Source: Macrostomum lignano (taxonomy: Eukaryota). From it: a stretch of 64,000 nt of DNA. A program made the position numbers and the translations under genes. Location: assembly GCA_002269645.1 (NCBI GenBank), contig NIVC01000514.1:186001-250000 (forward strand). Reading direction: 5' to 3'. The notes beneath the pieces are model-generated. The model did not search any database and had not been told where the DNA came from. It was given only the letters and a program-made list of their open reading frames with translations. The stretch's first letter is position 1. Each line of letters begins with the position of its first letter. Positions 785-59,564 of this stretch are shown here, one piece after another.

Positions 785-3748
785 TCACGTGTGCACCGTG
801 CGATTGGGCAGTGGTCGGATCCTCATACATGTCGCGCACTGCTTCACAAACCGCTCAACATCATTGCAGTGCCCCGGCCACCATGCTTCGCGTTTGAGTC
901 GATTTCGCGTCGCCAGCGCTCCGCTGTGGGTCACTCCGTGAGCCGCTTGCAGCATTTTACTACGGACCGCGGCAGGCGGGACCAGCAGGTCTCCGCAGCA
1001 TACGACGCCGTCTTCGATCGTCAACTGATAACGGACAGCCTTGAACGGACGCTCTGCAGCCGAGCAGTTGGACCAGACATTCTTCTGGATCCGGCGCTTG
1101 ATGCTCTTGAGCACTGGGTCGATGTCTGTTCCCTGGCGGATTTCCTCAAGCCTCAACAGGTCAGTCTCGGTCCAGTGGATGAAGCCACCATCGCCACTAG
1201 AATCGCCGTCATCGTTGCTCTCGAATGGCATCCGGGACATGGCATCCACGTGAGGGATGCTGTTGCCCTTGACGTAGGCGATGTCGAAGTCGAACGCGGC
1301 AAGCTGAATGGCCCACCGCATGATCCGCGCCGAAGTCACCTTGGGAAGCTCCCGACTGGGTCCGAAGATGAATTCCAGTGGCTGGTGGTCGCACTGAAGC
1401 AGGAATTTCTTGCCCAATAGAAAGTGCTTTGCTCGCTGAGTTGCCCAGACGACCGCCAGAGCCTCCCGCTCGATGTTGGAATAGTTGCGCTCGGCGGGTG
1501 AGAGGCGCCTTGACAGGTACAGCACCGGGTGGCCGTCTTGGCTGAGGATTCCCGATACTGCGGACTCGCTGGCATCTGTCGTCAGGGTGGTCAGCTTCCT
1601 GGGATCGAATATGCGGATAACCGGGTACACCGCCAAGGCTCGCTTGAGGTCTTCGAAAGCTTTTTGCTGCTCCAGGCCCCACACAAAGCTGGACTTCTGA
1701 CTCCTCAAAGCAGTCAAGGGCTCAATCTTCTCCGAGTAGGCCTGGATGTAGCGCGCATAATAGTTGGTGAGCCCCAGAAACGACTCCAGCTCCTTCCTCG
1801 TCGTGGGCGGCTTGACCTTCTGGATCTTCTCCACCAGCTTCTTGTCTGGCCGAACTCCATCCGCTGAGATGCGATACCCCAGGAAGCAGATCTCGGTGCT
1901 TCGAAAGACGCACTTCTCATGGTTAATCTCCATGCCAGCCTCTTTGAGGGTGCTCAGCAAGTGCTTCACTTTGGCATCCAGCTCACCTTCTGTCGGAGCG
2001 CCCACGCAAATGTCGTCTTGATAGATCACCATGTTCGACACCGCGTCGCCAATAGTGGCCTCCATGGCTGCCTGAAATTGGGCACTGGCTGTCTTGACAC
2101 CGTAGGGCATTCTCGTCCACCGCAGCAGGCCGATCGGCGTATTGATTGTGAGCACTTCCCTTGCGTTCTCATCCAGCTCGATCTGGTTGTAGGCATTTGT
2201 CAAGTCGACGGTGGCGAAGTGGGTCATCCCGGCCAGGGCGCAGAAGGCGGACTCAATGTTGGGCAGCGGGTAGGAGTCGGCGCAGATCTTGGGGTTGACT
2301 CCTATCTTGTAGTCCGAGCAGACTCGCAGATCATTGTTCGGTTTGCGCACGACCACAATTGGTGAGGCCCACCGGCTGCCTCCGGGTGGTACCGGCTCCA
2401 GAATCCCGCTCTGCACCATCTTCCGCAGCTTCTCGATGACCAGCGGCTTCATGTGGATTGGTACCTGACGGGCCTCGAAATAGCTTGGCTGCGCATTATC
2501 TTTCAAGACAATCCGAGCCCTGAAGCCCCGCAGCTTGCCTAGCGGGGGTGTCACCTCTGCGTGGTTGATGGCAACTCCGTCGAGCTTGAAGTCCAAAGCA
2601 TCGGTGCCCAGCAGTCCATGGTTCTTCTCGCACGCGGCCACAGTAACCTCGATGCAGGCAACTCTGTCGCTGAGCTCTACTACCGCTAAGAAGCAACCGA
2701 GGGTCTTGATGACAGACCCATCGAACTGGCGAAGCTGCCTGGGACACCGCTTGAGCCGAGGTTCACCCAAGGCTTTCCAAAAGTTCTTGGGGATGATGCT
2801 GGCGTCTGATCCAGAATCGAGCTGCATCGCCAGGAGCTTACCGTCCAGCTTCACATTCTTGATGCTGCTCGTCTTGCTCTTATTCGTGCTGCTGACGGTG
2901 AAGACTGGGTTGCGAGCTAGGTTGCCTTCCGGTTCCTCTGTCTCGATCTCGTGTGCCGACTTGTTCTGGGAGCTGCTTTTGCACACGGCTGCGAAGTGGT
3001 TGCGGCGTCCGCACTTCGCGCACGTCTTGCCCCAGGCTGGACATCGGCCGCTTGGGTGCTTTTGGCCACAGAACTTGCACGGCTTTCCGGCACTTCGGTT
3101 CTTGTCTACGCTGGCGATGGCTGCTGGGGCTGGCTGCTCAGCCGGGGTGCTGGAGCTGGTCGATGACTGCTTGACCTGATCGGAGCTGCTGTACTGCTGA
3201 ATGAGTTCCAGCTGTTGAACGTATTCAACGCAGGTATCCAACTTCACAGCTGCGGCAGCGCTCTGGATGAACTCGAGAGTCTTGGCTCGATGCTGCATGT
3301 TCTGCAGTCCGCTGATCAGCATCGTCTGAATGAGCTCATCCTCGGCAGTCTGATGGCAGCCCTCAGCGTTCAGCTTGCTGAATTCGCAGAACCTGGAGGC
3401 ATCCCTGAGGCGCTGTGCGAATTGTTGAGTCGATTCGCCGGTCTCTTGTCGAAGTGCCATGAATTTGGACCTCTCCGCAATGACCAGCCTCTTCTTGGGT
3501 GCCACCTTCTCCATGATCAGTTTGCGAATGTCTGCGAAGTCCATGTTCTCCAGTTCCTTGGGCTGCGCCATGACAGACACTCTGCGGACTGCCTCGACTC
3601 CCGCCTTGGACAGGAAGAGGTCAGTAATCTGGCGATCTTCATTGGAGTCCGTCAGCTTCTTGCTTCGACTGAGTGCGGCGAAACTCCTGAGCCATGCCTC
3701 AGTCATGGCTGGATCGTTTAGTGGCAGGTCACTTGCTTGCGACGCCAT
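785..3748 (-). CDS. Gag-Pol polyprotein (gag, CCHC knuckles, aspartic protease, RT, RNase H, integrase Zn finger), ended by a premature TGA
   Basis: CKFCGQKHPSGRCPAWGKTCAKCGRRNHFAAVC knuckles, LDSGS protease, YQDD RT motif, TDAS...ERNYSNIEREALA RNase H, H..H..C..C integrase Zn finger. Confidence 0.93.
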   Translation of the reverse strand: MASQASDLPLNDPAMTEAWLRSFAALSRSKKLTDSNEDRQITDLFLSKAGVEAVRRVSVMAQPKELENMDFADIRKLIMEKVAPKKRLVIAERSKFMALRQETGESTQQFAQRLRDASRFCEFSKLNAEGCHQTAEDELIQTMLISGLQNMQHRAKTLEFIQSAAAAVKLDTCVEYVQQLELIQQYSSSDQVKQSSTSSSTPAEQPAPAAIASVDKNRSAGKPCKFCGQKHPSGRCPAWGKTCAKCGRRNHFAAVCKSSSQNKSAHEIETEEPEGNLARNPVFTVSSTNKSKTSSIKNVKLDGKLLAMQLDSGSDASIIPKNFWKALGEPRLKRCPRQLRQFDGSVIKTLGCFLAVVELSDRVACIEVTVAACEKNHGLLGTDALDFKLDGVAINHAEVTPPLGKLRGFRARIVLKDNAQPSYFEARQVPIHMKPLVIEKLRKMVQSGILEPVPPGGSRWASPIVVVRKPNNDLRVCSDYKIGVNPKICADSYPLPNIESAFCALAGMTHFATVDLTNAYNQIELDENAREVLTINTPIGLLRWTRMPYGVKTASAQFQAAMEATIGDAVSNMVIYQDDICVGAPTEGELDAKVKHLLSTLKEAGMEINHEKCVFRSTEICFLGYRISADGVRPDKKLVEKIQKVKPPTTRKELESFLGLTNYYARYIQAYSEKIEPLTALRSQKSSFVWGLEQQKAFEDLKRALAVYPVIRIFDPRKLTTLTTDASESAVSGILSQDGHPVLYLSRRLSPAERNYSNIEREALAVVWATQRAKHFLLGKKFLLQCDHQPLEFIFGPSRELPKVTSARIMRWAIQLAAFDFDIAYVKGNSIPHVDAMSRMPFESNDDGDSSGDGGFIHWTETDLLRLEEIRQGTDIDPVLKSIKRRIQKNVWSNCSAAERPFKAVRYQLTIEDGVVCCGDLLVPPAAVRSKMLQAAHGVTHSGALATRNRLKREAWWPGHCNDVERFVKQCATCMRIRPLPNRTVHT

Positions 3749-3959
3749 TGTCGTGCCGTGAATTTGGCATAAAGAAACTCAAGGTTTATTTTAACTAGCA
3801 AGTAGCTTATTAAATAATGACACGAGCAAGGGCCGAGAGAACACCGAAATAAAGTCACGTGATGATAAATAACTACGTACAAGTACATGGCGGCTTAGGG
3901 GATGGCCAGTCAGAGCGAAGGGAGAGGAAAGAATGGTGTGCACGTACGATGCACGTACA
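3749..3959 (-). repeat. 5' LTR (~211 bp) of the left Gypsy element
   Basis: On the minus strand it begins TGTACG and ends CGACA, carries AATAAA (+ strand TTTATT at ~3785), and is followed by a TGGCG PBS-like sequence. The partner LTR is outside the window. Confidence 0.7.
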
Positions 3960-24258: not shown

Positions 24259-24845
24259 TTCGCGCTGGAAAGGAAGATGCGGATGAATGGATGGACTTCC
24301 TATGGAAGCGCTGGCCAGAGAATTGGGTATTAAGCGTAGGACTAAAACTTTAGTCGGGAACCCTGGTTTCTCCCCGGTGAATCCGGTCTTCAAAAGCCAA
24401 ATGGAACAGTTAGAGACAAGTCTTACCTGCTACGAGTCTGCCAAGCAAGCCGAGTCAAAGTTCGAGTCAGAAAATGAGAAAATTTCGGACTTAAATTTTC
24501 TCCGCCTCCGGGCTCTCGGCGGCGGCAGCTGAAATACTCGAGCAGCTTCGGCCAGGTGATTGACAGGCCGGGGCAGCCCGCAGCGGCTGGGGCAGCGGGC
24601 CGAGCTCTCATTGGCTGCCGAGCGGTCCTGTCCGACCACACACAGGCAGCTGAGTCAGTGCGCCCGGGTCTCAATTAGCTCCCGCCATGGACTTCCACAT
24701 GCAGCGTCTGGACTGACAGAAACCCTTTGAAGACTTTTTTCGTCAGCGGAACTTGAAGCTGTCGGATAAATTTAAAAAGTCGATGATAAAATGATCTTTG
24801 ATGGCGCTGCCTGGAGAGCTTGACCGCAACTGTGAGAAGACATGG

Positions 24846-25340
24846 TTGGCGCCAGCTACAGAGAAGGCTACAGTGGGGCGCCAGCTACAGAAGGGGCGCC
24901 AGCTACAGAGGAGGCTACAGTGGGCGCCAGCTACAGAAGGGGCGCCAGCTACAGAAGGAGCGCCAGCTACAGAAGGAGCGCCAGCTACAGAAGGAGCACC
25001 AGCTACAGAAGGAGCACCAGCTACAGAAGGGGCGCCAGCTACAGAAGGGGCGCCAGCTGCAGAAGGGGCGCCAGCTGCAGAAGGGGCGCCAGCTACAGAA
25101 GGGGCGCCAGCTACAGAGGAGGCTACAGTGGGGCGCCAGCTACAGAAGGGGCGCCAGCTACAGAAGGAGCGCCAGCTACAGAAGGAGCGCCAGCTACAGA
25201 AGGAGCACCAGCTACAGAAGGAGCACCAGCTACAGAAGGGGCGCCAGCTACAGAAGGGGCGCCAGCTGCAGAAGGGGCGCCAGCTGCAGAAGGGGCGCCA
25301 GCTACAGAAGGGGCGCCAGCTGCAGAAGGGGCGCCAGCAG
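24846..25340. repeat. 18-bp minisatellite (GCTACAGAAGGGGCGCCA)
   Basis: Direct observation. Confidence 0.92.
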
Positions 25341-25804
25341 CTACTGCAGAGCACAGAGGTATGTGAACCCTGTTTAGGAGATTTAATCCTCTCATATTTT
25401 AAACATAAAGCGAACTATTAGCATGCTGGCTGGTTACTCTCCACTCCAGATCGCTTATTCTAGCAGTCCCTGGCGCCACCCCCGAAGGGTTTCTAACTTG
25501 ATCTCCGAGTCGCAGCCAACCCCACCGCAGTGGCAGCTGCAGAGGCTGTTAAGTGACTCGCCTCGGCGCGTCATCTGCATGTTTTCTTGGCCCGCCTTGT
25601 CTGCCTGGCCGCAATTATCGCTGCTGCAACAATTATGAGGCGAAAGTTTCTGCTTAAAGATGAAGATTACTTGTGTTTTTGAGTACAGAAAAGCTGCTAA
25701 GTGATGCTGCTTGACGCGACCACCTTGGAGGCCTCGAGCTGTGTGGCCCGGGTGAAGGCAGCGACTCCGGGCACAGAGCCAGCTGGTGGCTCCCGCTGGG
25801 TGCC

Positions 25805-27412
25805 TAAGTGAAGCCGGGAGTGACAGGGGAATCTGGGAGTGACAGGGGAATCTGGGAGTGACAGGGGAATCTGGGAGTGACAGGGTAATTTGGGAGTGAC
25901 AGGGGAATCTGGGAGTGACAGGGGAATCTGGGAGTGACAGGGGAATTTGGGAGTGACAGGGGAATCTGGGAGTGACAGGGGAATCTGGGAGTGACAGGGG
26001 AATCTGGGAGTGACAGGGGAATCTGGGAGTGACAGGGGAATCTGGGAGTGACAGGGGAATTTGGGAGTGACAGGGGAATTCGGGAGTGACAGGGGAATTT
26101 GGGAGTGACAGGAGAATCTAGAGGTGACAGGGGAATCTAGGAGTGACAGGGGAATTTGGGAGTGACAGGGGAATCTAGGAGTGACAGGGGAATCTGGGAG
26201 TGACAGAGGGATCTGGGAGTGACAGGGGAAATGGGGAGTGACAGGGGAATTTAGGAGTGACAGGGGAATCTGGAAGTGACAGAGGGATCTGGAAGTGACA
26301 GAGGGATCTGGGAGTGACAGGGGAAATGGGGAGTGACAGGGGAATCTGGGAGTGACAGGGGATCTAGGAGTGACAGGGGAATCTAGAAGTGACAGAGGGA
26401 TCCGGGCGTGACAGGGGAACTGGGGAGTGACAGGGCAGTCGGGAGTGACAGGGCAGTCCGGGAGTGACAGGGCAGTCGGGAGTGACAGGGCAGTCCGGGC
26501 GTGACAGGGGAACTGGGGAGTGACAGGGGAACTGGGGAGTGACAGGGCAGTCGAGAGTGACAGGGCAGTCGGGAGTGACAGGGCAGTTGAGAGTGACAGG
26601 GCAGTCGGGAGTGACAGGGCAGTCGGGAGTGACAGGGCAGTCCGGGAGTGACAGGGCAGTCGGGAGTGACAGGGCAGTCGGGAGTGACAGGGCAGTCGGG
26701 AGTGACAGGGCAGTCGGGAGTGACAGGGCAGTCCGGGAGTGACAGGGCAGTCGGGAGTGACAGGGCAGTCGGGAGTGATAAGGCAGTCCGGGAGTGACAG
26801 GGCAGTCCGGGAGTGACAGGGCAGTCGGGAGTGACAGGGCAGTCGGGAGTGACAGGGCAGTCCGGGAGTGACAGGGCAGTCCAGGAGTGACAGGGCAGTC
26901 CGGGAGTGACAGGGCAGTCCGGGAGTGACAGGGCAGTCGGGAGTGACAGGGCAGTCCGGGAGTGACAGGGCAGTCGGGAGTGACAGGGCAGTCCGGGAGT
27001 GACAGGGCAGTCGGGAGTGACAGGGCAGTCCGGGCGTGACAGGGGAACTGGGGAGTGACAGGGGAACTGGGGAGTGACAGGGCAGTCGAGAGTGACAGGG
27101 CAGTCGGGAGTGACAGGGCAGTCGGGAGTGACAGGGCAGTCGAGAGTGACAGGGCAGTTGAGAGTGACAGGGCAGTCGGGAGTGACAGGGCAGTCGGGAG
27201 TGACAGGGCAGTCGGGAGTGACAGGGCAGTCCGGGAGTGACAGGGCAGTCGGGAGTGACAGGGCAGTCGGGAGTGATAAGGCAGTCCGGGAGTGACAGGG
27301 CAGTCCGGGAGTGACAGGGCAGTCGGGAGTGACAGGGCAGTCCGGGAGTGACAGGGCAGTCCGGGAGTGACAGGGCAGTCCGGGAGTGACAGGGCAGTCC
27401 GGGAGTGACAGG
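25805..27412. repeat. 18/19-bp composite minisatellite (GGGAGTGACAGGGGAATCT changing to GGGAGTGACAGGGCAGTC[C])
   Basis: Two related unit types in adjacent blocks. Confidence 0.95.
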
Positions 27413-27567
27413 GAAAGCAGTGGGAAAGACAGAGGCTCGGGCCAAACTCAATTGGCGAACACCAGAGGGCTGAGAGGCCCGCAGCGGCCCTCGTGCTGGC
27501 TGACTTGCGTAGGCAACGCGTGGCTGCCTTGCCATGCAGTTGAATCGGGAAGCGAACCCGCGCATCC

Positions 27568-27581
27568 GTTGCCATAGAAAC
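27568..27581. promoter_or_regulatory. Candidate RFX X-box (GTTGCCATAGAAAC)
   Basis: Close match to the X-box consensus GTTGCCATGGCAAC, in unique GC-rich DNA between divergent genes. Confidence 0.5.
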
Positions 27582-28133
27582 GGATGGCTGATCCGGCGAG
27601 TTTGACTGACAGCTCCTCAGCCGTGCTTTGTTCATTTGCTGGCTTGCTTTTTTCTGCTTTTACGACACAGCACGCAGAGACCGGATCGGCTTCCGCAAGC
27701 AAAACTGCAAGGAAGCCGGACAATGCAGCTTTTCGTCTCGGCCGGCTGCTGCGCCATTGCGCGGCAACCGCTGTTCTTTGCATGGGTGGCTGAGCTGCTG
27801 TTTGAGGCTGAGCAGCAGCTCAACTCTGCACTCGCTACTTTATTATTCCCTATCCCAATTCGCAAGCAAAATTTGCTGATTTTGTCCTTTGTTATTTTGC
27901 ACTCGAAGCTCGGGGCTGCCCACCCCGGGGCCGCTGCGGGCCGGCCGTTTTCGCACGCGTCCCGGGCGGGCCGCCACCTGCCGGGCTCCCCGGCTCCAGG
28001 CCGCTTATCGGGCCGGCCTGGCCGCCAGCCCACTGCCTATTTCAGCCCCGCGCCCCGACCGCTCGGCAACCGGCAAGACCCTCTGCGCCAGACATTGTCT
28101 TCGATTCCCTGGCTAATCCGCTGCTAATCCGCC

Positions 28134-31100
28134 ATGCAGACGCTGCTGAGCCTCGCCATCGCCCTCCTCGGCTGTCTCGCCGCCGGCGCCGCGGCCCAGA
28201 ATCCCTGCTGCGGACCGCGCCAGTTCCAGGCGCTGCTGGCCATCCGATTCAGCCCGAATAGCACCTACAGAGAAGTGAGCGGCCGGGGACCGCTGGTAGT
28301 GCATGGACCGCTGGTAGTGCATGGACCGCTGGTAGTGCATGCACCGCTGGTAGTGCATGGACCGCTGGTAGTGCATGGACCGCTAGTACTGCATGGACCG
28401 CTGGTAGTGCATGCACCGCTGGTAGTGCATGGACCGCTGGTAGTGCATGGACCGCTGGTAGTGCATGCACCGCTGGTAGTGCATGGACCGCTGGTAGTGC
28501 ATGCACCGCTGGTAGTGCATGGACCGCTAGTAGTGCATGGATCCTTTTAGTCTAATCAGCCGGCCCTTGTTGTCCATGAAATGCTATAGTGGTGCAGGGA
28601 CTCCTAGTACGAGCGAGTACAGGGACCGCTAGTACTGCTATTTCACTAGTGCCGCTAGTGACTGCTAGTATTTCATGGACCTCTAAGAGTCCAGGGACCC
28701 CTAGTTTACACATACAGTTCTTACCAGTAAACCAACTCAACATTGCTACGCACGCTACTACTCATCTCACGGCTGCTCTGCTGCTCATTCCTCAGGCCTT
28801 CTCCAACCTGGCGTTCGACTTCACCCGCCAGATGGTGGCCAGCAACGAGACGCTGATTGGCGGCCGCCTGGTGACTAACCAGCGCGTGCTGGTTGACGGC
28901 CACAGGCGTACGATGTACATCGTGGACCACCGCAGCCGCGAATGCCGCATCGTCGCCCTGACGCGCGGAGTTGAGGCGCCCTGCGTGCCCAGTGAGACTT
29001 GGAAATCGAATGCACTGCTGATTTCAGACTACTATTAGTAGCTTCGAGCTATTTGGCCCTTTTGATTCCAAAAAAGAATCCCAATTTGCCTCGCCGATTC
29101 GCCTTTTTCAGACAATTTCCGCGGCGAGGGCACCCTTCACTTCGGGGCCGGCAGGGACCTCCTCAGCTTCAACAGCTTCCGCGGCCGAGTGGGCGAGTTC
29201 GAGGCTCAAGTGTCCGTCACCAAGGCCTCTTGCGTGCCCATCTCACAGTCCGTCTTCAACCACCGTGAGTCTGTCAGCAGTGTAGGGGAGTCTGTCAGCA
29301 GTGTGGGGGAGTCTGTCAGCAGTGTGGGGGAGTCTGTCAGCAGTGTAGGGGAGTCTGTCAGCAGTGTAGGGGAGTCTGTCAGCAGTGTGGGGAGTCTGTC
29401 AGCAGTGTGGGGAGTCTGTCAGCAGTGTAGGGGAGTCTGTCAGCAGGGTAGGGGAGTCTGTCAGCAGTGTAGGGGAGTCTGTCAGCAGTGTAGGGAGTCT
29501 GTCAGCAGTGTGTCGAGTCTGTCAGCAGTGTGGGGGAGTCTGTCAGCAGTGTGGGGAGTCTGTCAGCAGTGTGGGGGAGTCTGTCAGCAGTGTGGGGAGT
29601 CTGTCAGCAGTGTAGGGGAGTCTGTCAGCAGTGTGGGGAGTCTGTCAGCAGTGTGGGGGAGTCTGTCAGCAGTGTAGGGGAGTCTGTCAGCAGTGTGGGG
29701 AGTCTGTCAGCAGTGTAGGGGAGTCTGTCAGCAGTGTGTCGAGTCTGTCAGCAGTGTGGGGGAGTCTGTCAGCAGTGTAGGGGAGTCTGTCAGCAGTGTG
29801 GGGAGTCTGTCAGCAGTGTGGGGGAGTCTGTCAGCAGTGTGTCGAGTCTGTCAGCAGTGTGGGGGAGTCTGTCAGCAGTGTAGGGGAGTCTGTCAGCAGG
29901 GTAGGGGAGTCTGTCAGCAGTGTGGGGGAGTCTGTCAGCAGTGTAGGGAGTCTGTCAGCAGTGTGTCGAGTCTGTCAGCAGTGTGGGGGAGTCTGTCAGT
30001 AGCGTAGGGGAGTCTGTCAGCAGTGTGTCGAGTCCGTCAGCAGTGTAGGGGAGTCTGTCAGCAGTGTAGGGGAGTCTGTCAGCAGTGTTTTAAGTCTGTC
30101 AGCAGTGTTTTAAGTCTGTCAGCAGTGTTTTGAGTCTGTCAGCAGTGTTTTGAGTCTGTCAGCAGTGTTTTGAGTCTGTCAGCAGTGTGTTAAGTCTGTC
30201 AGCAGTGTGGGGAGTCTTGCAGTAGTGTAGGGGAGTCTGTCAGCAGTGTGTCGAGTCTGTCAGCAGTGTGGGGGAGTCTGTCAGCAGTGTAGGGGAGTCT
30301 GTCAGCAGGGTAGGGGAGTCTGTCAGCAGTGTGGGGGAGTCTGTCAGCAGTGTGGGGAGTCTGTCAGCAGTGTAGGGGAGTCTGTCAGCAGTGTGTCGAG
30401 TCTGTCAGCAGTGTGGGGGAGTCTGTCAGCAGTGTGTCGAGTCTGTCAGCAGTGTAGGGGAGTCTGTCAGCAGTGTAGGGGAGTCTGTCAGCAGTGTTTT
30501 AAGTCTGTCAGCAGTGTTTTAAGTCTGTCAGCAGTGTTTTGAGTCTGTCAGCAGTGTTTTGAGTCTGTCAGCAGTGTTTTGAGTCTGTCAGCAGTGTGTT
30601 AAGTCTGTCAGCAGTGTGGGGAGTCTTGCAGTAGTGTAGGGGAGTCTGTCAGCAGTGTGTCGAGTCTGTCAGCAGGGAAGGGGAGTCTGTCAGCAGTGTG
30701 TTGAGTCTGTCAGCAGGGAAGGGGAGTCTGTCAGCAGTGTGGGGAGTCTATCAGCAGTTTGTTAAGTCTGGCAGCAGTGTGTTGAGTCTGTCAGCAGTGT
30801 AGGGGAGTCTGTCAGCAGGGTAGGGGAGTCTGTCAGCAGTGTAGGGGAGTCTGTCAGCAGGGTAGGGGAGTCTGTCAGCAGGGTAGGGGAGTCTGTCAGC
30901 AGTGTGTTGAGTCTGTCAGCAGTGTGTTGAGTCTGTCAGCAGTGTGTTGAGTCTGTCAGCAGTGCAGGGGAGTCTGTCAGCAGTGTTTGGAGTCTGTCAG
31001 TAGTGTAGAGGAGTCTGTCAGCAGTGTGTTGAGTCTGTCAGCAGTGCAGGGGAGTCTGTCAGCAGTGTGTTGAGTCTGTCAGCAGTGTGTTGAGTCTGTC

Positions 31101-34100
31101 AGCAGTGTGTTGAGTCTGTCAGCAGTGTAGGGGAGTCTGTCAGCAGGGTAGGGGAGTCTGTCAGCAGTGTTTTGAGTCTGTCAGCAGTGTTTTGAGTCTG
31201 TCAGCAGTGTGGGGAGTCTGTCAGTAGTGTAGGGAGTCTGTCAGTAGTGTAGGGGAGTCTGTCAGCAGTGTGTTGAGTCTGTCAGCAGTGTGTTGAGTCT
31301 GTCAGCAGTGTGTTAAGTCTGTCAGCAGTGTGTTGAGTCTGTCAGCAGTGTGTTGAGTCTGTCAGCAGGGTAGGGGAGTCTGTCAGCAGTGTGTTGAGTC
31401 TGTCAGTAGATTATAAATAGGGTGCAGATGTTGGGCTGCGCCCTTCCAGTGTGTATGTACTCGTACTTTTGTTTTCAGTTTTCATGCCACCCCGCCCCGT
31501 CCCCCGTCTCGCGCCCGGGCCAGGGTTTGTGAGAGGCGTAAGTCTCAACCCTGGCCTAGCCCTTTGCACCCAGCCCCCGGCCCAATCTCTGTCCAATCTG
31601 GGTGCCCCCCCCCTCCCTCGTTGCCCGCCTCACCCTGGGGCTGCTCGTATTGGCTGGCTGGCTGATAAGCCGGCTGGGCCCCAGGGTTTGGCTCGCCGTC
31701 TCCAGTCTGCCCCACCCCTTCCCCCTTTTTTGTGTATTATTTAAATGCTAGCCCTGAGCGGGCTGCGCTCCACGTGGCTCTCTATTGGTGTCCGCTTCGT
31801 TCTTACTGTTTTTGCGTTCATCGGCGTACCTCTGCTTCGTGCCAATAAACGCTTCGTTAGTAACTCGATATATCAAGGAGAGGTGAGCTCGAGCTTTCGT
31901 TCTTCTGGGTTGCCGCGTGGGGCCGGGATCTGCAGGGACCTGGGGACGGTGAACTCTCGCCGATCCCAGGGTGTTCGGTCAGGCGAACTCTCGCCGAACC
32001 GAGCGAGACAGGGTAGGAATAGCCGGGGTGAGGGCTGGGACCGGGGTGTCTCAGGCGGGGAGGGCCCGAACCTTGACCCGTCCAGCGGCCATTAGGCCGA
32101 GACACAACAAGTGGTGCCGTGACCAGGATCAGCGGTCCTCTCCCCTGCTGTCCTGCCGTGTGTTTAGGGTTGTGTGTGTTGCCTAGTTTATTTGTGTGTT
32201 GTTTGCTTCGGTTGTCTCTGTGTTTTTGTAGCCATGGCCAATTTAGACGATCTGATTGACGCCCTGACGGCGCGTCTGCAAAACGAACTTAATGTGGCAC
32301 AGCGGGTGCCGAGGCCAAATAAGTACGTGCCCACACAGGACTTTGCCCTTTGGATGCAACAATTCACAGGGTATTGTGAGGCGGCTCATATTCTAGGGGA
32401 TCAGCGCAAGCAGGCGCTGCTCAGTCTGCTTGACTTTAATACTGCTTTTAAGGCTGTTGCGAATCTTGAGTTGGCCGATGATTTGCCGTATGATGAGTTT
32501 GTTGAGCAGCTAGAGGCTAGGTTTGATGAGAATAGGACTGCTCAAGATTACAAGACCGAGTTCCAGAGTAGGAATCAGAAAGATGGCGAGCCCATTGAAG
32601 AATATGCAGACGTGCTCAAGGAGCTTATGAGAAAATCGTACCCAATGCTGCCAGCGGCCCAGCGAGAAGAGTTGGTGAAAGACAGGTTTTTGAAGGGGAT
32701 TCGGGTGCCAGCCCGGGTGCTGGAGAGCGTGCTGCTGCAAGCGCCAGAGACGCTCCAGGACGCTATTAGGCGGGTGCGTCAAGTGAGGGCATCGTTGGCT
32801 CTGATGGAGCCCGAGGGCAAGCGAGCTGTGCACATGGTGGGGGTCAGGCCGCAGCGGCTGGCAACAGCCAGGAGTCCAGGGCAGCCGCCGAGATAGCAGC
32901 TCTGAAAGCGGAAGTGGCTCAGCTAAAAGCAAGTGCTGCAGCGCCCACTGCGCCGATGGCGACAGCAAGGTCTGAGCAGCCAAAAGTGAGCTTGCAGCAT
33001 CGAGCCCCTGAGCAGAGTCAGCAGCAGAGGCAGTGTGGTCGGTGCCTGCAGACAGGGCATACTACGGCTCGGTGCCGTAATGCAGTGGTCTGCCGGGAGT
33101 GTGGCCAGTCAGGGCACATGCGCAACCGCTGCTATCGTCGGTGGGACCAGTCGGGTTCGGGAAACGGATTGGGGGCTCGGCCGGGGCACCCGTCCGGGCC
33201 CCAGCGTCAGTGAATCCGGGTGCATCGGGGGCCGCGGCCTTGTCCCAGAGTGTGCTGAGTCGGCAGGGACTGGGCTATGTGGATGCACAGTTTAGGTTTG
33301 GGCCCCCGATTGCATGTCTGCTTGACAGCGGGGCCACCGTGTCGTTGTTAAGCAACCGTTTCCTGAAGTCTAAAAAAGCCGACATTGACTTATTGCCGAA
33401 TTTGCCGAATTTTTCCGTTTTCGCTGCCAATGGGGAACCGATTGCTGTACATGGAATGGTGACGATGAAGTTTTCTGTTGGGGACACCGAGTTTTTGCAC
33501 GAGTTCGCTGTGGTCGAGGAACTGGCTGTGGCATGTATTCTGGGCACTGACTTTTTCGTGAGACACGGGATGGCGATTGACTTTGCTAGGAATTGCTTGC
33601 AGACTGCATCCTGTGTGTATCCGTTTCGCTTATCAGCAGATAAGCCGCGTCTTTGCCGTCTGGTGCTGAGTCAGCCTGAGCAGTTCAATGCAGGTCAAGA
33701 GAAGGTGGTGCACGTCAGGTTGCAGAGAAGGGTTCCCTCTGGGGTTCAGTTCCTAGGCATTGTGGAGTCTGAGAGGAGAGTGAGTAACGAGCAGATGGTG
33801 GCCAGATCGGTACAGATGCCTGACGGGGACGGTCGCTTGGCTGTCAGGGTGTTGAACACGTCAGGATGCAGTCTGTCATTAAGGAAGGGAAGCCGAATTG
33901 GTTGGTTCTCCCCAGTGGCGGCCCAGCAGCCAGCTGGGTGGCAGGTGAACTCGGTGGAGAGTGTCCGAGACGACTGGAACCCCCTCAGCGATGTCAAGGA
34001 GTGGGGAGGATGTGGCCTGACGGGCGATGAGAAGCACGAGTTTGAGCGCCTGATGGCTCGGAATCGTGATGTCTTTGCCAGGGATAGCTCGGAGTTGGGA

Positions 34101-37100
34101 CAGTCACACTTGATGGCGCATGAGATTGACACCGGCAACGCCAAGCCAGTAAGTCAGCCCGCGCGTAGGATTCCACCGCGCTGGAAGGAGGAAATTGATA
34201 AGCAGGTTGATGAGTTGTTGCAGCAGGATCGCATCTATCCCTGCTACTCTCCGTGGGCGAGCCCGATCGTGCCGGTTAAAAAGGCCGACGGTAGCTTGAG
34301 GTTGTGTCTAGACTATCGGCGCCTTAACGAGGTCACAGTGCCAGATCCTTACCCACCGCCGCGGATGGACGAGACGCTTGATGCGCTAGGAGGGAACTGT
34401 GTTTTCTCGACGATGGATCTGGCCTCCGGCTATCATCAGTGCCCGATTGAGCCGAAGGACCAGTTGAAAACGGCGTTCGTGGTACCCAACAGGGGTCAGT
34501 TCGCCTGGAAGTGCATGAGTTTTGGCTTGCGCAATGCTCCCGCCACGTTCGCCAGGCTAATGTCTATGGCCCTGTCTGAGGTTAACTGGAAGGAGTGCCT
34601 GGTGTACTTTGACGATATAGTCGTGTTCGCCAAGTCGGTGGGTCAGCATCTCGAGCGATTGAAGCATGTTTTCCAGTGCCTGAGGGATGCCAATGTCAAG
34701 CTGAAGCCCGCCAAGTGTGTGTTCCTCGCAGAGCGGGTGAAGTTTCTGGGCCACATCGTCTCTCAGGAGGGGATCGCAACGGATCCGAGCAAGTGCGAGG
34801 AGATCCAGAATTGGCCGAGGCCATGTAGCGCCAAGAAGGTGCAGGCATTCCTGGGTACGTGCGCCTACTATCAGTCATTTATCCCGCAGTTTTCAGAGAT
34901 TGCAGCGCCGCTGTATAGGTTAACCGCAGACGGAGTGAAGTTTGAGTGGGGTAGTGAAGAGGAGAGCTCGTTTTGCAGGCTGAAAGACGCTTTGTGTTCA
35001 CCGAATGTGATGGCATTCCCGGATTTTTCGCCTGGTGCCGGGGAGTTCATCCTCGACACGGACGCCAGTTCGCGCGTCGGGCTGGGAGCCGTCCTGTCAC
35101 AGCGTCAAGCAGATGGCCGTGAGAAGGTGATCGCTTACGGGTCTAGGATGATTCATGCGGCGGAGAAAAATTATTGCACCACCAGGTTAGAGTTGCTTGC
35201 CGTCGTGCACTTCGTCAAAAAGTATAGGTACTATTTGTTAGGTAGAAAGTTCACTGTTCGTTCAGACCACAAAGCTTTGCAGTGGCTAGCCAGTCTGAAG
35301 GACGTAGAGGGTCAGTGCGCAAGGTGGCTTGAGTCGCTCCAGAACTTCGACTTTGAGATCATTCACAGGCCAGGCAAGGAGCACGGCAACGCTGATTCGC
35401 TGTCTCGCAAGTACCGAAAACACGCTGGCCATGAGAGCTGCCCTAGCTGCCAGTTTAGCGAGAATGTGCCAGTAGTGAACGCGGTGTTTGGCAGTGGGCT
35501 GTCTTCGAAGGAAGTCCAGCAGGCGCAAGTGGCCGAGAAGAAGCTTGCAGCTGTCCGCTCCTATGCCCTGGACCCGGGTTCGAACCCCAGTGCGCCTAGA
35601 GTGATGTCGTGGGAGGAGCGTGTGCTGTGGGCACAACGGCAGCTGATAAGAGTAGAGTCTGATCTGTTGTATTTTCAGAGTCCCGGGAGTGGGTGCCAGA
35701 AAAAGATCTTGCTGCCGCCGGCTTTGCTGCCGAAAGTGCTCAGTGAGCTTCATGATGGGGTTGCAGGAGGGCACCTTGGGGTTAGGAAGACACAAGAGAA
35801 AGTGAAGGCGAGATACTGGTGGCCGGGGCTGAGTCGTTCCGTGGAAGAGTATTGCCGGAGCTGTGTCCACTGTGCGAAGGCGAAGCCTGGGCGCAGCAAC
35901 CGGGCGCCTTTGCAGCCAATCTGCTCGGAAGGAGCTTTCCAGAGGATCATGAGTGACATTGTCGGGCCGTTGCCCAAGTCCAGAGGTGGCAATCGATTCG
36001 TGCTGACAATCCAGGATTCTTTTACTAAGTGGCCGGTGGCGGTGCCCTTGTCGAATCAGCGAGCCCCGACGGTGGCGCGAGCGATTTTTGATCACTGGAT
36101 TGCGCACTTTGGTTGTCCTGAATTTCTAGTCACCGATAAGGGCACCAATTTTGAGTCGGCTTTGATGAAGCAGTTGTGTCGGTTGCTTGCCGTTAAGAAA
36201 TGCAGAACGTCCTCCTATCACCCGATGGCTGATGGTCAGGCTGAGAGTTTCAATAAGACGTTGAAGTCAATGATCAAGTGCAGGATGAGTGAGTCGGTGG
36301 GCGAAGGAGACTGGGAGGATCTGATCCACCCGTCTCTCATGGCGTACCGTAGCAGCGTTCACAGAGGCACGGGGTACACCCCGTACTACATGCTGTACGC
36401 CAGGGAGATGCGGCTTCCAGTGGACATTGGAACCTTGCCTGAGTCCATTCCTGCCAGTGCTCCGGCGTATGTTCAGTCATTAGGTAATAGTCTGGCTGAG
36501 GCTCATTCGCAGGTGCGGACCAACCTGCAGCAGTACCAGAGGAAACAGAAAGTGCTGTACGACTCAAGGGTGCGAGGCCCGGCCATAGAAGTTGGGGATG
36601 CCGTCCTAGAATACTCGCCTGCGCTGCAGGCAGGGGAGGCAGCCAAGTTCCATTGCAATTGGAAGGGGCCGGCGAAGGTGTTAGAGAAGATATCCGATTT
36701 GAATTACCGGGTAAAGCACGCCAATAGGGGAAAGAGCAAAATAGTGCATTATAATAATTTGCGAAAAGTACCCGAGCGGCCTGAGCAGTTCAGGTTGATG
36801 AATAGGCATACGGCAGTGCAGCGCCGGTCGGCGCATCCGCCTGAGCCGGCAGGGTGCAGACAGGAGCCCGCGGGGCCGGCGACTAAGAGCCGGAACTTGA
36901 GGAGGAGGAGGAGTTTTACTCGTATGTGGTGCCACCAGTTGCCGTTGGGCCTCGGCATGGGATAGTAGGGCCGGGAACGCCAGTTGCGCCATGCGCACCG
37001 GTGGCTCCAGCGGCGCCAGCCGTGTCTCCGCGCAGACTGCGCGAGCGTCGGGGTGTGCCCCCAGCGTATTACGGGAATCCGGTATTGTATCGTTAATTCG

Positions 37101-40100
37101 CAGTGGGCTCACAAGGCGGTCGTCATAAATTGATTTTTAATATGCACTTGTATTAATGCCTCCACGCTGTTGTCTATGGTAGAAAGCCTAAAATAACCTA
37201 AAATGAAAAAAATGATACAACCCCAAAGCACAAAAAAATCATAAAATGGAACGCATGGAAAGCACGTAAAAAACATTAAATGTATTAAAATTACAAAGTA
37301 TGCTAGGCAAGAAGCGTTCTCAATCGTATTGTAAAATAAACATGTCATAGGATGGGTCAGGTCAGGGTCACAGTTGCTAGTCCGCAAGGCATAGGTAGTG
37401 ATTGGGTTTAAATGTCATCATTGCAGGAGGACCATGTCGTCGCCAACGACACCGACTGATTTGTATGGCGTGTTAGGCGTGGGTCGGACTGCTAACTCTG
37501 CGGAGATTGAGGCAGCGTGTAGTCGTCTGTACTCAAAGCGGCCCCGCGTCTGTCCTGCCGAGGTAGAGTCTCCGGAGTCTCAGCGAGACGTGATGGCGAT
37601 GTGCGTTTTATCTGACCCAGTGTTTCGGGAAGTATACGATCGGGTTGGAGAGGCAGCGTGTCAAGGGGTGTTAAAGTACGCCTACTTTTTCAATCCTCCC
37701 CCTGACGTTGAGTTGCCCGAGCAGGTCAGGTTAGCTTTGGCTAGTCTTAAGGGAAGCGCCGCAGGGGAAGCTCCAGTTCACGCGGAGATCCCAGCCGAGT
37801 TATTGGCTCCGGCTGCGCTTGCTGAGTGTAGGCGGCTGAGGGGTGCGCTGCTGGCGCGGTTGAGGGCTGGGGATAGTGAAGGAGCTTGCCTGGTGGTTCA
37901 GGAGGTGGCGAGGTTTCTTGATGGGGCTGGTGTGAGTGTGCCTGAGCAGTTGTCTAGATTCTTAGCAGTGTCTGTGTCGTTTCTGTGCAATCAGTATGGG
38001 CGGAAGAGAGGTTCTGGTGGTGGTTCCGGGAGGTGTCGGAGGGTCCCGCCTTCGGTGCTGCAGGCGGCGTTTGAGTGCGTGTTGTTGGCTGTGCGGGGTT
38101 TTGAGCTGTGTGAGTTGGGGGGTCCCTTGTTGGGGAGGCTCCGGGGTCTGTCTCTCTTAGTGGATCCTGGCCTCGCGCGGCGCCCGGAGGAGGGGAGTGA
38201 CGGGCCGCACCTTTCGCAGACTCCGCTGACGGCCCAGCGCGACTTGGCGACCGAAGAGTTAACGGGTGTCGACCCCGAGCAAGTACGACCGGCCGACACG
38301 GTCCAGGAGGTCTCCCCCCGTGACGACCCGAATCAGCGCAAGGTCAGCTCGGCTAAGCGTCTCGTCGATGCAAAGGCATACCTAACGAGGCTGGGCCGGT
38401 CGATTCAGCCCGAGGACCTTCGTGGCGTGCGTCGATGTCTAGCGGCTGTAAACTCGCCGTACTGCCTGCGTCTAGAATGTCCCGTTGTCCGACCACTGCT
38501 GCAAGACCGACGGATCGTGTTCGCCCTGGGCCTGAAGGCCAGTGCTGCACCGTGGTGGCCATCGCTGCGAGACGATGTACGACGATTTCTAGCGGGTAGC
38601 TGGCCGCGTGTCGTGGCGGTCGGCGAAGTCGAGCTCAATTGGGACGCTGAGAGGTCGCAGCGCCAGGACCAGTTAACGGCGGCGATGGAGCAGTTCTTGC
38701 TTGCCAAGGAGTTCGGCCTGCCGGTTTTGTTCCGAGTTGAAGGCGGCGAACCTGCCTGGGCGGTCGCCCTAGGATTCCTCCGGCAGCCGGAGTTTCAAGC
38801 GATGAGCGTCATGCTGGCCGAGGACCTGGACTTGCCGGAGGCCGTCGAGGCCGCGCTGGTGAGCAAGTGCCACGGGGTCTTCTTCGAGGTGTCCGCTCGG
38901 TGCCGAGGATCCCGCGAGCGGTCCAACGGGCTAAGCGTCTCCCGCGGCAGCGCCTGCTAGTGACATCGGCCGCACCGTTTGGTGGAGACCCCAAGGACCC
39001 GACAGCCATCAAGTTCGTGCCGGAAGCCCTAGCGGACAGTGAATGTGATCGCAGGTACTGGACTCGACTGTTTGCGACCAACTGTAGTAGATTTTTTGGC
39101 CGATTGTAGAGTAGAATTGCGTTCTTAAGCCCGTTTTCAATTTTTGCGTACGCAATAGTTCGTGTCCCGTTTTCATTTTTTCGTTTTTGTTTTTTGTAAT
39201 GCCGGCGATATCCACGCGTCGCGTCAAAGTTTTTCTGTTATTTTTCGGCCGTCGTTTTTTGAATTAACTTTTTTTCAGACTTGCTTGTTCATGCGTTGCT
39301 TTTTGCTTGACATCCCCTTTCTCCTCTTCTTTTTCGTGGAGGGGGAGGATGTTGGGCTGCGCCCTTCCAGTGTGTATGTACTCGTACTTTTGTTTTCAGT
39401 TTTCATGCCACCCCGCCCCGTCCCCCGTCTCGCGCCCGGGCCAGGGTTTGTGAGAGGCGTAAGTCTCAACCCTGGCCTAGCCCTTTGCACCCAGCCCCCG
39501 GCCCAATCTCTGTCCAATCTGGGTGCCCCCCCCCTCCCTCGTTGCCCGCCTCACCCTGGGGCTGCTCGTATTGGCTGGCTGGCTGATAAGCCGGCTGGGC
39601 CCCAGGGTTTGGCTCGCCGTCTCCAGTCTGCCCACCCCTTCCCCCTTTTTTGTGTATTATTTAAATGCTAGCCCTGAGCGGGCTGCGCTCCACGTGGCTC
39701 TCTATTGGTGTCCGCTTCGTTCTTACTGTTTTTGCGTTCATCGGCGTACCTCTGCTTCGTGCCAATAAACGCTTCGTTAGTAACTCGATATATCAAGGAG
39801 AGGTGAGCTCGAGCTTTCGTTCTTCTGGGTTGCCGCGTGGGGCCGGGATCTGCAGGGACCTGGGGACGGTGAACTCTCGCCGATCCCAGGGTGTTCGGTC
39901 AGGCGAACTCTCGCCGAACCGAGCGAGACAGGGTAGGAATAGCCGGGGTGAGGGCTGGGACCGGGGTGTCTCAGGCGGGGAGGGCCCGAACCTTGACCCG
40001 TCCAGCGGCCATTAGGCCGAGACACAACACAGACATTCAGTCTGTCAGTGCAGACAGTCAGTCTGTCAGTGCAGACAGTCAGTCAGGGATGCAGACAGTA

Positions 40101-56146: not shown

Positions 56147-57213
56147 TACCAATATAAAGAGGAACTATAATTCGCTACGAAAACATTCCTGGTGGAGAAA
56201 TATGCGGACTCTCTACGGGCGAGTTGGCTTTTGTCACCCAAGAGTTGAGTTTCGGTGCACTGAGATTTTGTTTTACTCAATTTGAGGCAGTAGGAAATCC
56301 GTACCTATGAGAAGATAAGCTCAATGAGCTGAGAGAGCTTAAACGAGAAGGAATTCCGAAGTCGTTGCTTGATAAAAAAGCGGTCTAAGGAGGCTACGCC
56401 ATAATTTTTTGCGAAATTCAATGGGATGTTTCAGAATTGCACGTTGAATCTATCTGGTTTGGTGAGCTGTTGTTTTTTAGATTGAAACTATCTTGTAGCA
56501 GTTCATTAGTTCAGCTAAACCACATTAAACGCTTTAAGTACCCAAACTTGGTGCATGGTTTGCAGGGTCAATGGCGATAAACTGCCGATTGGGGTGCCAT
56601 GAGTTCTCTGTTGCGCCTGTTGACAGAGCAGTCAGCTCGTATCTGGCGGAAGTCGGTCCTCGTGTTGACGTAGGACCGATTAGCCATCTAACTGAGCCGA
56701 AATTGTAGGCTCGCAAAGTTTCGACGGCTTCTGAGTTGTGTCAGAGCTTGCCAAATTATATTGAGCATTGAGCATTTGTGCCACCTCTGACGCGTTCTGA
56801 TGATGGCGTTTAAAAGCCGCAGATGCGGAAGCATCAATCAGTTGGATGTGGGAAATTCGCTAAGCCAGGGGATGCAGCAGAGCTTGCGAGCTGCGAGCCA
56901 AACAGCGGCAGTTTGTGTAACCAAACAGGCATGCAGTACTTTTTCTGACTGGTTCGGACTGGATTTTTGATTACCTCAGGGCTTGGTGGGAAAGGGCAGC
57001 CTGCATCGCCCGCCCAGGCCGGATGCCCGCATGCCAGCCTATGCGCTGGTCGAGGTAGGAAAGGGAAGCGCAGCTGGTGGCCAATGGTGATGAACTGCCA
57101 ACTGGGATAGCTGGAATGCTTTGTACAATGCTATTAAATGCCTCGCTGTGAAGCGTCGCTGAGGACTCACTGAGGCGTCACTTGGAGTTTCCAGAGCCGC
57201 AACTCCCGCCAAG

Positions 57214-59564
57214 ATGCCAAGTGCCGTCATGGACACCCTGGCCGAGAGCTCGGCCCACGGCATCAGTCGAGTGGCCACCTCCCGCAGCCGGGTGATGAAG
57301 GTGATGTGGTTTCTGCTGTTCCTGCTCTTCTTGGCACTGTTTGTGCGCAGCGCCGTGACGCTGGTGATCCGTCTGAGGGGAGGCGGCCTGACCAAGTCGT
57401 TCGAGCTGGACAAAGTGCCCTTCGTGTTCCCGGACCTGTACTTCTGCCCCAACAATCCGTACTCTGGCAGCTACCCGCACGACCTGAGCCAGGCGGACGC
57501 GGAGCTGATCAACACCGCAATCACGAATCTCAGCGCCGAGTTCGATTCCCGTCTCGGACCGACGAGGTCGATTGAACTGCGAGCCCGTCTGGTGCAGAGC
57601 TCGCTGCCGGTGCACCTGTCCTACCGGCTCTTGGCTCAGCGCAGAGCCCAGTCGGTGCTGCAGACGACGGCGACGCCCACCATGGGGCCACAGTCCAGCT
57701 TCCCCATCTTTCCCAGGGTGCTGCCGTTTAGCCACCCGGTGAGTCTGGTCTGTTTCCAGCTGAGACTCACCGACAATGACCGGCGGAAAATTGTCGCGGA
57801 AAACTGGCAGGTGAACCTCCGCCTGTCCACCGACCCCTTCTTTGCCGAGTTCAACTATTCGGGCCTGAGTGTGGATCCGATTCGCAGCCCGGCAACCGGA
57901 GAGGAGGTGCCGCTGCAGGACTGGAGCATAAGCGTCGGCCGGGAGCGGCTGCAGGAGGCGGGCTTCACCATGCTGATCGTGCCGGTCGGCAGCTACCCGT
58001 CGTTCGCGCACGAGGCCAAGTTTCAGCTGGCGCCCAGTAACTCGTACTCGGTGGCGCTGAGCATGGAGGAGACTGAGTACAGCGAGGAGCTGCGCGGCCA
58101 GCAGTGCCAGGGCGACAGTGAGGCGGTGGACTTCAGCGATCACCTCACGGGCAGAAAGCTGACCTTTGCCTACAGCCCAGCCGCCTGCTACTATGAAAAC
58201 CTGGTGCGACTGGTGACTCAGGCCTACGGCTGCATGGTATTCAGCTTCCCGCTCACGTGGAGCCTGAGGAACACAACCAGGTAGGGGTTCTGTCTGTACA
58301 ACAAACTGTGAGTGACAGCAACTGACTTTAAACCGCATTGCGCATCGGAGCAGGTGCTTCAACATGAGCGAGACCGGCCGCGACCAGTTCAACGTAGTTC
58401 AGACAACAAAGACGAACTGGTCGGACTTGGACAGGCAGGTGCGGGAGGCCTGCCGCTCCCGGCAGCCGTGCCGCTACCAGCGCTACTCGGCCGAGTTCTC
58501 TTTCAGCCGCTGGCCCAGCATCGGCAGCTCCGTCGTGGCCCACTTCGCCGAGATGGGCAGCTCACCATACAGCACGCCAGCCACCAGACGCCTCATCGAC
58601 ATGGCCAGGTCGCTCCGGACGAGTGAGTAACCTTTGAAGCAGACTCAAACCAGTTTTTACGCATAGGTATCCGCTAATGATGCCTTGAAATAAATTGTCT
58701 TAAATTTGAAGTGCTCTGTGTACTTCCATGAGTCTGTTTCCCCTAAAATTACATTACCGCGAGGCACCCTGACCCATGTTTCACATCCAGGAAGTTGTTG
58801 TGTCGTGACTAACTAAGAACTAATATATTTACCAGGTAAGTATAGAACAAATTTTCATGGTTTCTATTGCAAATGCATTTTTCTCTATATTTCTACCGTT
58901 GGTAGTATCAAAAAAACTTTTTAGAAGATGGAGAATAAAATCGAGGTATATATACGAGTAGATAGTATATAATATTTGCATTTTTTTATTTTACCCAGCC
59001 ACATCTCACACTGCAAGTGGAACATTTTATTAGCTGGTACGCAAGCCAATCCATAGGTGAGTCCATGCTCAGCGGTTTGGACCAGCCGCTGAGAAAAACC
59101 GAACTCAGAGAAACTGGTCCCGAGCACACCAGAAGCCAATACGGACTCTCCCTTGTTTCAAAGTCAGAGTTGCAGGCCATTGATGGCCTCATCAACTATC
59201 AGCATAAAACCAACTCCGTCGCCCCTGATTCGCAGGGAACCACTCCGCCCACACGGAGGCCCAATTTCGCGCCTACCTGTCCGAGTCGCTGATCAACGTT
59301 CGCATTGTGGCCCGAAGCACCACCTCGCCGCAGGTGGTGATCTCGCCAGCGTACTCGGTCACGGCCTTCCTGGCAGACACTGGCGGCCTGCTGGGGCTGT
59401 ACGTCGGCTGCAGCCTGCTCACCCTGTGTGAGTTCTTTGAGCTGTTCTACCGACTGCTTTCGGGGGCGCTGCTGAAGCATCGGGGCGGCGCCCGCCCGGC
59501 AGAGCCTGAGGCGCCGCAGGGAGACAGCCAGCCGGACGCCAAGAATGACACCTCTGAAGCCTGA
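57214..59564 (+). CDS. DEG/ENaC (ASIC-like) sodium channel; exons 57214-58280 (or -58307), 58354-58622, 59236-59564
   Basis: SSAHG motif, TM1, FPDLYFCPNNP, Cys-rich thumb, and TM2 LADTGGLLGLYVGCSLLTLCEF with a G-x-S selectivity belt. Confidence 0.92.

Follow-up and report, generated by a model that had tools for sequence, protein, structure and literature searches.

J-domains are already known as accessory modules of viruses. Polyomavirus T antigens, for example, carry an N-terminal J-domain that recruits Hsc70, joined to targeting modules, and are produced from a spliced message. Among Gypsy retrotransposons, third open reading frames (ORF3s) that have nuclease folds and are not envelope (env) genes are also known: the Juno and Vesta elements of bdelloid rotifers carry modular, family-specific non-env ORF3s between pol and the 3′ long terminal repeat (LTR), including a 3′-5′ exonuclease fold and fused forms (PMC5408684). 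Non-envelope accessories of Gypsy elements also include CERV, from the element Cer1 in C. elegans (PMC10309623), and an AlkB ORF found in orchids (PMC9289625), with domains that, as far as the available text of these sources goes, appear unrelated to those described here. We examined a 64,000-nucleotide stretch of DNA (contig NIVC01000514.1, positions 186,001 to 250,000; hereafter “the window”), in which positions 31429-40029 form a complete, very young Ty3/Gypsy element of Macrostomum lignano whose ORF3 combines a J-like domain, a helical bundle and a TatD-like domain. The host is named by UniRef proteins that are 98-100% identical over the matched parts. This J-helix(-TatD) ORF3 is real, selected and apparently undescribed.

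In design, ORF3 resembles the polyomavirus T antigens, with which it shares an N-terminal J-domain followed by putative targeting modules, splicing of ORF3 being predicted only. The T antigens differ in belonging to a DNA virus, and the ORF3s have neither a helicase nor the LxCxE motif (0 of 7); homology is confined to the J-domain. Class II TatD nucleases (YcfH, YjjV, TATDN2, TATDN3; PF01026) share their sequence profile and motif order with the ORF3 TatD, which differs in the replacement of five of six metal ligands, its fusion to a J-domain and its retrotransposon carrier. The ORF3s of Juno and Vesta encode a DEDDy exonuclease and a GDSL esterase with intact catalytic residues, and neither DnaJ nor TatD appears in the available text (PMC5408684); in the Macrostomum ORF3, by contrast, the nuclease is an apparently dead TatD, and a J-domain together with a helical bundle of no known family makes up the core. 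Heat-induced LTR families of M. lignano (PMC12801592) share host, superfamily and a link to the heat-shock system. Their LTRs contain heat-shock elements, however, and no canonical heat-shock element was found at one mismatch or fewer in nine LTR stretches of the elements studied here; identity with Mlig-id38 was not adopted for this reason. The main text of that report mentions no DnaJ, Hsp40, TatD or ORF3 and no LTR element with a J-domain/TatD ORF, and the passages searched in PMC13524379 likewise mention no DnaJ. A first description of the window, prepared by a model from the letters alone (the earlier note), knew of no J-TatD cargo in an LTR element; the literature that we searched likewise yielded no LTR element in which an ORF encodes a J-domain or TatD, a scope outside which Repbase, Dfam, GyDB and the earlier M. 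lignano LTR classification lie.

Domains and conservation of ORF3

ORF3 (37434-39109, plus strand) starts at an ATG at 37434, about 340 nt past the end of pol, and encodes 558 amino acids in unbroken copies. The window copy is frameshifted near 38910-38918, with the first 508 amino acids in one frame and the remainder, up to the stop at 39109, in another. The earlier note had posited a frame of about 560 codons after repair of one base near 38918, and genomic copies agree with that reconstruction. DNA matches in the same genome number 23, of which 19 cover the whole ORF (counts inflated by the redundant assembly and the allotetraploid host; PMC12801592). Nine of the 19 are unbroken at 558 codons, one has a 562-amino-acid frame, and nine are frameshifted at varied places. 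None contains an in-frame stop; the breaks are indels, many of them within base runs. ORF3 keeps its place between pol and the 3′ LTR in this family, with an LTR directly 3′ of it in 19 of 19 full copies (one cut by a contig end) and the end of pol at most 1.5 kb upstream in 18. Contigs from four of four public runs contain an uninterrupted ORF3 at the window's break site; where gag and the pol tail are broken in the window, these contigs read differently as well. Thus, all three breaks are either private to the window copy or assembly errors.

In an unbroken copy, Pfam places DnaJ at amino acids 9-69 (E = 0.0025) and TatD at amino acids 359-535 (E = 5.5e-5), both under the Pfam cut-off. The resulting doubt about the domains of the window family is removed by the scores of its relatives. 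J-bearing ORF3 frames reach 48-65 bits against Pfam DnaJ in six of seven cases, the seventh being a partial frame with 25 bits, and the TatD domains of sister families reach 32-34 bits in two of two; in sister-family ORF3s both DnaJ (48-62 bits) and TatD lie above the cut-offs. A sequence search of the PDB with ORF3 returns J-domains first and TatD proteins next, and Atlas features for amino acids 300-558 indicate TatD (0.93). The order first read from the letters, a J-domain ahead of a TatD-type domain, is supported by these comparisons.

The J-like domain (amino acids 9-75; 37458-37658) has a J-domain fold according to both PDB sequence matches and model-based structure searches. Its HPD motif is replaced by RPR (37539-37547), and HPD is intact in representatives of five TatD-free families and in the relatives designated L054, L056 and L057. 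For the putative TatD-like barrel (38355-39106), which is assigned by sequence profiles, the motif order given in the earlier note stands. However, the six metal ligands defined in PMC10085689 (HxH, Glu, His, His, Asp) are reduced to one, the central Glu398, in this putative pseudo-nuclease; the HxH pair, both later His residues and the Asp are replaced. Sister families keep two of the six, the first His besides the Glu, and this Glu is invariant in five of five alignment rows. Judging from these residues, the J-domain and the TatD of the window family both look catalytically dead. Because both catalytic motifs are lost, a binding adaptor is likelier in this family than a co-chaperone joined to a nuclease.

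A single-sequence fold of the 558-amino-acid protein, in which the TatD part appears as alternating strands and helices, has a predicted local distance difference test score (pLDDT) of 39, too low for a fold search. An AlphaFold model of amino acids 1-252, built on a 25-row alignment, reaches a pLDDT of 67 (85-93 at amino acids 131-180) and contains the J-domain and a five-helix bundle (37809-38165). The predicted bundle has a basic Gly/Arg loop, is conserved in the clade and matches no known family. Structure searches with this model return J-domains and otherwise generic helical bundles (best Z 8.1), and the matches include viral proteins named DnaJ. The bundle gives no PDB sequence match at E ≤ 0.001 and no usable Atlas match; generic matches of this kind would neither identify nor exclude a known fold. 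ORF3 has no transmembrane segment and no env features, in line with the earlier note, which had read neither a signal peptide nor an anchor in it: the highest 19-residue hydropathy is 1.49, there is one N-glycosylation motif, and Pfam yields no env match. A hydrophobic segment is absent from seven of seven ORF3s, and basic clusters are present in five of the seven.

To measure selection, we used a Nei-Gojobori-type count of nonsynonymous over synonymous rates (dN/dS; own script, kappa 2, bootstrap intervals). For whole ORF3, three within-family pairs give 0.39, 0.33 and 0.36, with intervals of 0.19-0.64 that all exclude 1, so the copies are not decaying toward a ratio of about 1. Between sister families, dN/dS is 0.14 for the J-domain, 0.12 for the helical bundle and 0.18-0.25 for the dead TatD, at synonymous distances (dS) of 1.1-1.5 where synonymous sites are near saturation. 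TatD-free ORF3 pairs give 0.19-0.31, and reverse transcriptase (RT) controls give 0.03-0.19. Intervals include 1 in three short, close pairs (TatD of L002/L018, TatD of L054/L062, and L134/L133). The TatD part alone has a ratio of 0.47 (interval 0.12-1.53) within the window family and of 0.50 between this family and L056. All three domains of ORF3 are under purifying selection, and we hold it very probable that ORF3 is a selected accessory protein. Of the kept accessory protein envisaged in the earlier note, then, selection is confirmed, but the HPD motif and the metal ligands are lost in the window family.

The ORF3-bearing clade

Genome searches of the tBLASTn type recovered relatives that are 33-40% identical in ORF3 and others whose RT identity is as low as 54%. 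We scanned 58 stretches of at most 10 kb, picked by those matches, together with the window, using custom profiles; in 43 the RT was of sufficient length to enter a tree. Being picked by similarity, this sample gives no frequency of ORF3 among all Gypsy families of the genome. The tree holds rows from this genome only.

The RT tree contains an ORF3-bearing clade of 40 rows (support 95/94). Five branches within it have an ORF3 of about 240-330 amino acids composed of a J-domain, an acidic linker and the helical bundle, with HPD intact. One of the five carries a chromodomain between the J-domain and the bundle (Pfam Chromo, E = 1.9e-12), and this J-chromo-helix form is present in two related families. 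TatD is found in a subclade of 21 RT rows (support 99/99), ten of which have J-helix-TatD, six TatD pieces only and five (L103-L107) none. The outgroup rows L119 and L120 have no ORF3 domains, and the long-branch row L127 has a J-domain only. Three TatD-free families yield at least about 20 near-identical matches each, as counted by single-protein searches in the redundant assembly.

The TatD-bearing rows are also grouped by quick trees of the J-domain (95 by the SH-like approximate likelihood-ratio test, SH-aLRT) and of the helical domain (85 SH-aLRT), and the J-domain of the window family has the longest branch (1.63). Because RT, J-domain and helix trees all group these rows, we conclude that the J-helix core came first, that TatD was appended once, and that HPD was lost later in the window lineage. 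On the evidence of these trees, the J-domain and helical core is older and wider than the TatD fusion, and is common to at least five TatD-free families. Two parts of the earlier proposal are not supported. Nothing indicates that an env ever existed whose place ORF3 could have taken (“in place of env”); some relatives carry a J-helix ORF3, and others have an unrelated frame or no third gene at all. Nor does the element seem to have captured and fused two host modules, given the older J-helix core, the single addition of TatD and the weak scores of host TatD genes.

These scores come from a comparison in which the ORF3 TatD reaches 39-51 bits against class II bacterial-type TatD, versus 6-12 bits against partial exons of the host's two TatD genes. 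The best PDB matches of the domain are YcfH and YjjV (E = 1.5-2.3e-8), followed by TATDN1 and TATDN3. Origin of the TatD from the two host TatD genes is not favored by these scores, which cover exons only, and the source is uncertain in any case, given long branches and a comparison without TATDN2. A word-index protein search with the whole ORF3 protein gave no matches in 8000 candidates. A HMMER scan of 1.84 billion representatives gave 12, of which three are M. lignano gene models, one is a Logan fragment and the rest are generic TatD or J proteins. The helical-domain profile found two matches in 8000 candidates, both from M. lignano, in a word-limited search that is weak evidence on range; the TatD-family profile found 12 bacterial-type matches and nothing in metagenome or viral contigs. 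So far, the J-bearing clade has one host species. The TatD lineage extends beyond this assembly, because the Logan contig P0005 (1208 bp) encodes a dead TatD that is 51% identical to that of the window family and has no closer match in this genome.

Several families are mosaics (L137 vs L126; L057 and L059 vs L063; L135 vs L129), with pol parts of 89-97% nucleotide identity beside 66-70% in ORF3 or other parts. In L137/L126, for example, pol is 92% and ORF3 69% identical, and in the same mosaic pairs the synonymous distance of ORF3 is far above that of RT. These patterns indicate that recombination between families exchanges either the ORF3 cassette or segments of RT. Taken together, the clade shows a constant core of J-domain and bundle with exchangeable add-ons, in a protein predicted to be soluble and, because close relatives are without it, dispensable.

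Other arrangements were seen among the same stretches. In the closest sister family, L103 (3313-4056, minus strand) and also L105-L107 have a different frame of 247 amino acids after pol and ahead of the 3′ LTR; its tail is hydrophobic and it has no Pfam match. L054 (700-5000) and L055 carry ORF3 and a 3′ LTR, but the 6.7 kb upstream contain no match to gag or pol; this is possibly an element with ORF3 as its sole gene, either rearranged or non-autonomous. L116 (5766-8001) has the J-chromo-helix ORF twice, as an inverted duplication, and L135 of the same family has a single sense copy. L117 (1485-3773, minus strand) contains a Penelope-like element, recognized by eye from an RT and a GIY-YIG-like end, inserted in a Gypsy pol.

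Predicted expression and possible roles

ORF3 is probably made from a spliced subgenomic mRNA that would join a donor in the LTR to an acceptor before the J-domain. A GTRAG donor is present in the 3′ part of the LTRs, predicted in the window at 31880-31888, 3′ of the AATAAA, which would put the exon end at 31882. Nine of ten families or subfamilies have an acceptor-like motif no more than 20 nt from the ORF3 start, several of them directly before the ATG; the predicted acceptor of the window (37407-37426) is 7 nt upstream of the ATG. L054, L056, L057 and L059 have no in-frame ATG beside the J-domain, and joining of the LTR donor to the acceptor would create a start codon, which in L054 and L056 arises from a donor A/GT and an acceptor AG/TG. 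The env of Drosophila gypsy reportedly has a similar splicing-made start codon. The UniRef gene model P0006 joins the LTR to ORF3 at the very junction predicted for the window family.

We favor, at a probability of roughly 0.45, a reading of ORF3 as an adaptor whose J-domain delivers Hsp70 to a complex bound by reader domains, the most plausible candidate being a complex that silences the element at its chromatin or its transcripts. The J-domain would recruit host Hsp70 to a complex bound by the helical bundle and an added reader; the chromodomain might read methylated histones, and the dead TatD might read single-stranded DNA, RNA ends or RNA:DNA hybrids. Hsp70 would then loosen or remodel the bound complex to the element's benefit. 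The likeliest target would be a silencing complex in the nucleus, assembled on loci or transcripts of the element itself, and the J-domain would be used much as it is by polyomavirus T antigens. Of the parts of this reading, an ancestral role in recruiting Hsp70 is likely, and a chromatin or anti-silencing target is more tentative. In the window family the Hsp70 step is probably gone, to judge from the RPR motif and the long branch of the J-domain, and the protein probably keeps a binding or scaffold role, or competes with HPD-bearing relatives, without stimulating Hsp70. A fuller version, in which a modular, chaperone-targeting ORF3 dismantles silencing complexes through exchangeable readers, HPD-less forms are later arms-race decoys or competitors, and the cassette is swapped by recombination, seems to us speculative and rather unlikely as a whole. 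J-domain proteins that act on chromatin have been described, namely SILENZIO (PMC8616336) and the PKL-JDPs (bioRxiv 10.64898/2026.09.14.751395).

Several points weigh against the adaptor reading. These plant J-proteins promote silencing and do not oppose it. The window family has neither HPD nor the basic-cluster pattern, and any target of the helical bundle is a guess, since the modelled bundle has no specific structural match. The acceptor pattern was picked after the sequences had been viewed, such that its P value is no fair test, and no splice joint occurs in the contigs of the four public runs, whose kind is uncertain and whose contigs drop minor forms. No RNA run is listed among the public runs that hold the sequence; neither outcome bears on expression. 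The sister family L103-L107, with an RT 82% identical to that of the window family, has young LTRs and no detectable J-domain, helix or TatD. In L062-L064, L108 and L109, an internal deletion has spared no more than the final two thirds of the dead TatD, as a frame of about 180 amino acids; these are also young, with LTR pairs 99.3-99.9% identical in the four having both LTRs.

The best surviving alternative, which we nonetheless consider unlikely, is that ORF3 is a cytoplasmic co-chaperone or scaffold of the element's own particle, bringing Hsp70 to Gag, RT or genomic RNA, with the dead TatD holding or protecting RNA or cDNA ends. Some viral RTs depend on Hsp40/Hsp70, and the unbroken copies and dN/dS values speak for this role as much as for the adaptor. 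In addition, TatD enzymes act on single-stranded DNA (PMC10085689) and TATDN2 acts on RNA in R-loops (PMC10711561), substrates that resemble intermediates of reverse transcription. However, loss of ORF3 in close, recently active relatives and its recombination independently of pol (L137/L126) are more in keeping with a role directed at the host than with adaptation to the element's own Gag and Pol, and the chromodomain of one branch points to chromatin.

It is also conceivable, but improbable, that ORF3 aids integration, the chromodomain or the dead TatD recognizing chromatin or DNA structure and the J-domain clearing or disassembling the integration complex. Chromodomains steer integration in chromoviruses, and both the window copy and L062 lie inside tandem-repeat arrays. 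Here, though, the chromodomain is on a separate ORF and not on the integrase, and tandem repeats abound in this region in any case. We give still less credence to ORF3 being a decaying passenger of the window family, once useful and now drifting. Such drift could account for the lost HPD and metal ligands, the frameshifts in nine of 19 full copies, a dN/dS above that of RT (0.33-0.39 vs 0.08-0.14) and the TatD interval that includes 1. Yet whole-ORF intervals exclude 1 in all three pairs, the 19 copies contain indels, many in base runs, and no stops, gag and pol are broken in the same manner, and the 51%-identical dead TatD exists outside this assembly. Finally, an active nuclease with a rebuilt active site is very improbable with one of six ligands kept in the window family and two of six in its sisters (ligands per PMC10085689), despite the invariant central Glu and a Glu/Asp near the lost second His.

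If the adaptor reading is correct in outline, the clade suggests an undescribed route by which retrotransposons use host chaperones. Little is known of counter-defence proteins that animal transposons encode, and this clade offers dozens of young copies and a natural series of forms (J-helix, J-chromo-helix, J-helix-TatD, HPD lost, ORF3 lost). The host has transgenesis and RNA-seq resources (PMC12801592), which makes Hsp70 hijack by an animal retrotransposon directly testable. In addition, some M. lignano gene models named “J domain-containing protein” in UniRef and NCBI are retrotransposon cargo.

Layout of the element and its surroundings

The earlier note's view of the element as a young and complete Gypsy retrotransposon is well founded. 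The 4-bp target-site duplication CAGA is found on both flanks (31425-31428 and 40030-40033). The 5′ LTR (31429-32109, 681 bp) has TG...CA ends, an AATAAA at 31844 and no canonical heat-shock element, and differs from the 3′ LTR (39350-40029, 680 bp) by a single 1-nt indel and zero substitutions. A primer-binding site (32112-32129), which we take to be tRNA-His-like, has a near-identical sequence in L057, L059 and L063, and a polypurine tract lies at 39338-39349. Pfam matches to gag, zinc knuckles, protease, RT, RNase H and integrase follow the Ty3/Gypsy order. The gag gene (32234-33213), encoding capsid and zinc knuckles, is in two frames in the window copy, with a break near 32838. The pol gene (33081-37097), in the order protease-RT-RNase H-integrase, is open from 33081 to 36965 and broken near 36885, with its tail in another frame. 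All of these features are on the plus strand.

Long minisatellite arrays with units of 18-21 nt occupy 24700-31400 and adjoin the element on its left side; units related to them resume to the right of the 3′ LTR. The window also contains a second Gypsy-type pol (785-3778, minus strand) with protease, RT, RNase H and an integrase zinc finger. An exon at 57163-58284 (plus strand) belongs to a gene for an amiloride-sensitive sodium channel of the DEG/ENaC type (Pfam E = 1.3e-18).

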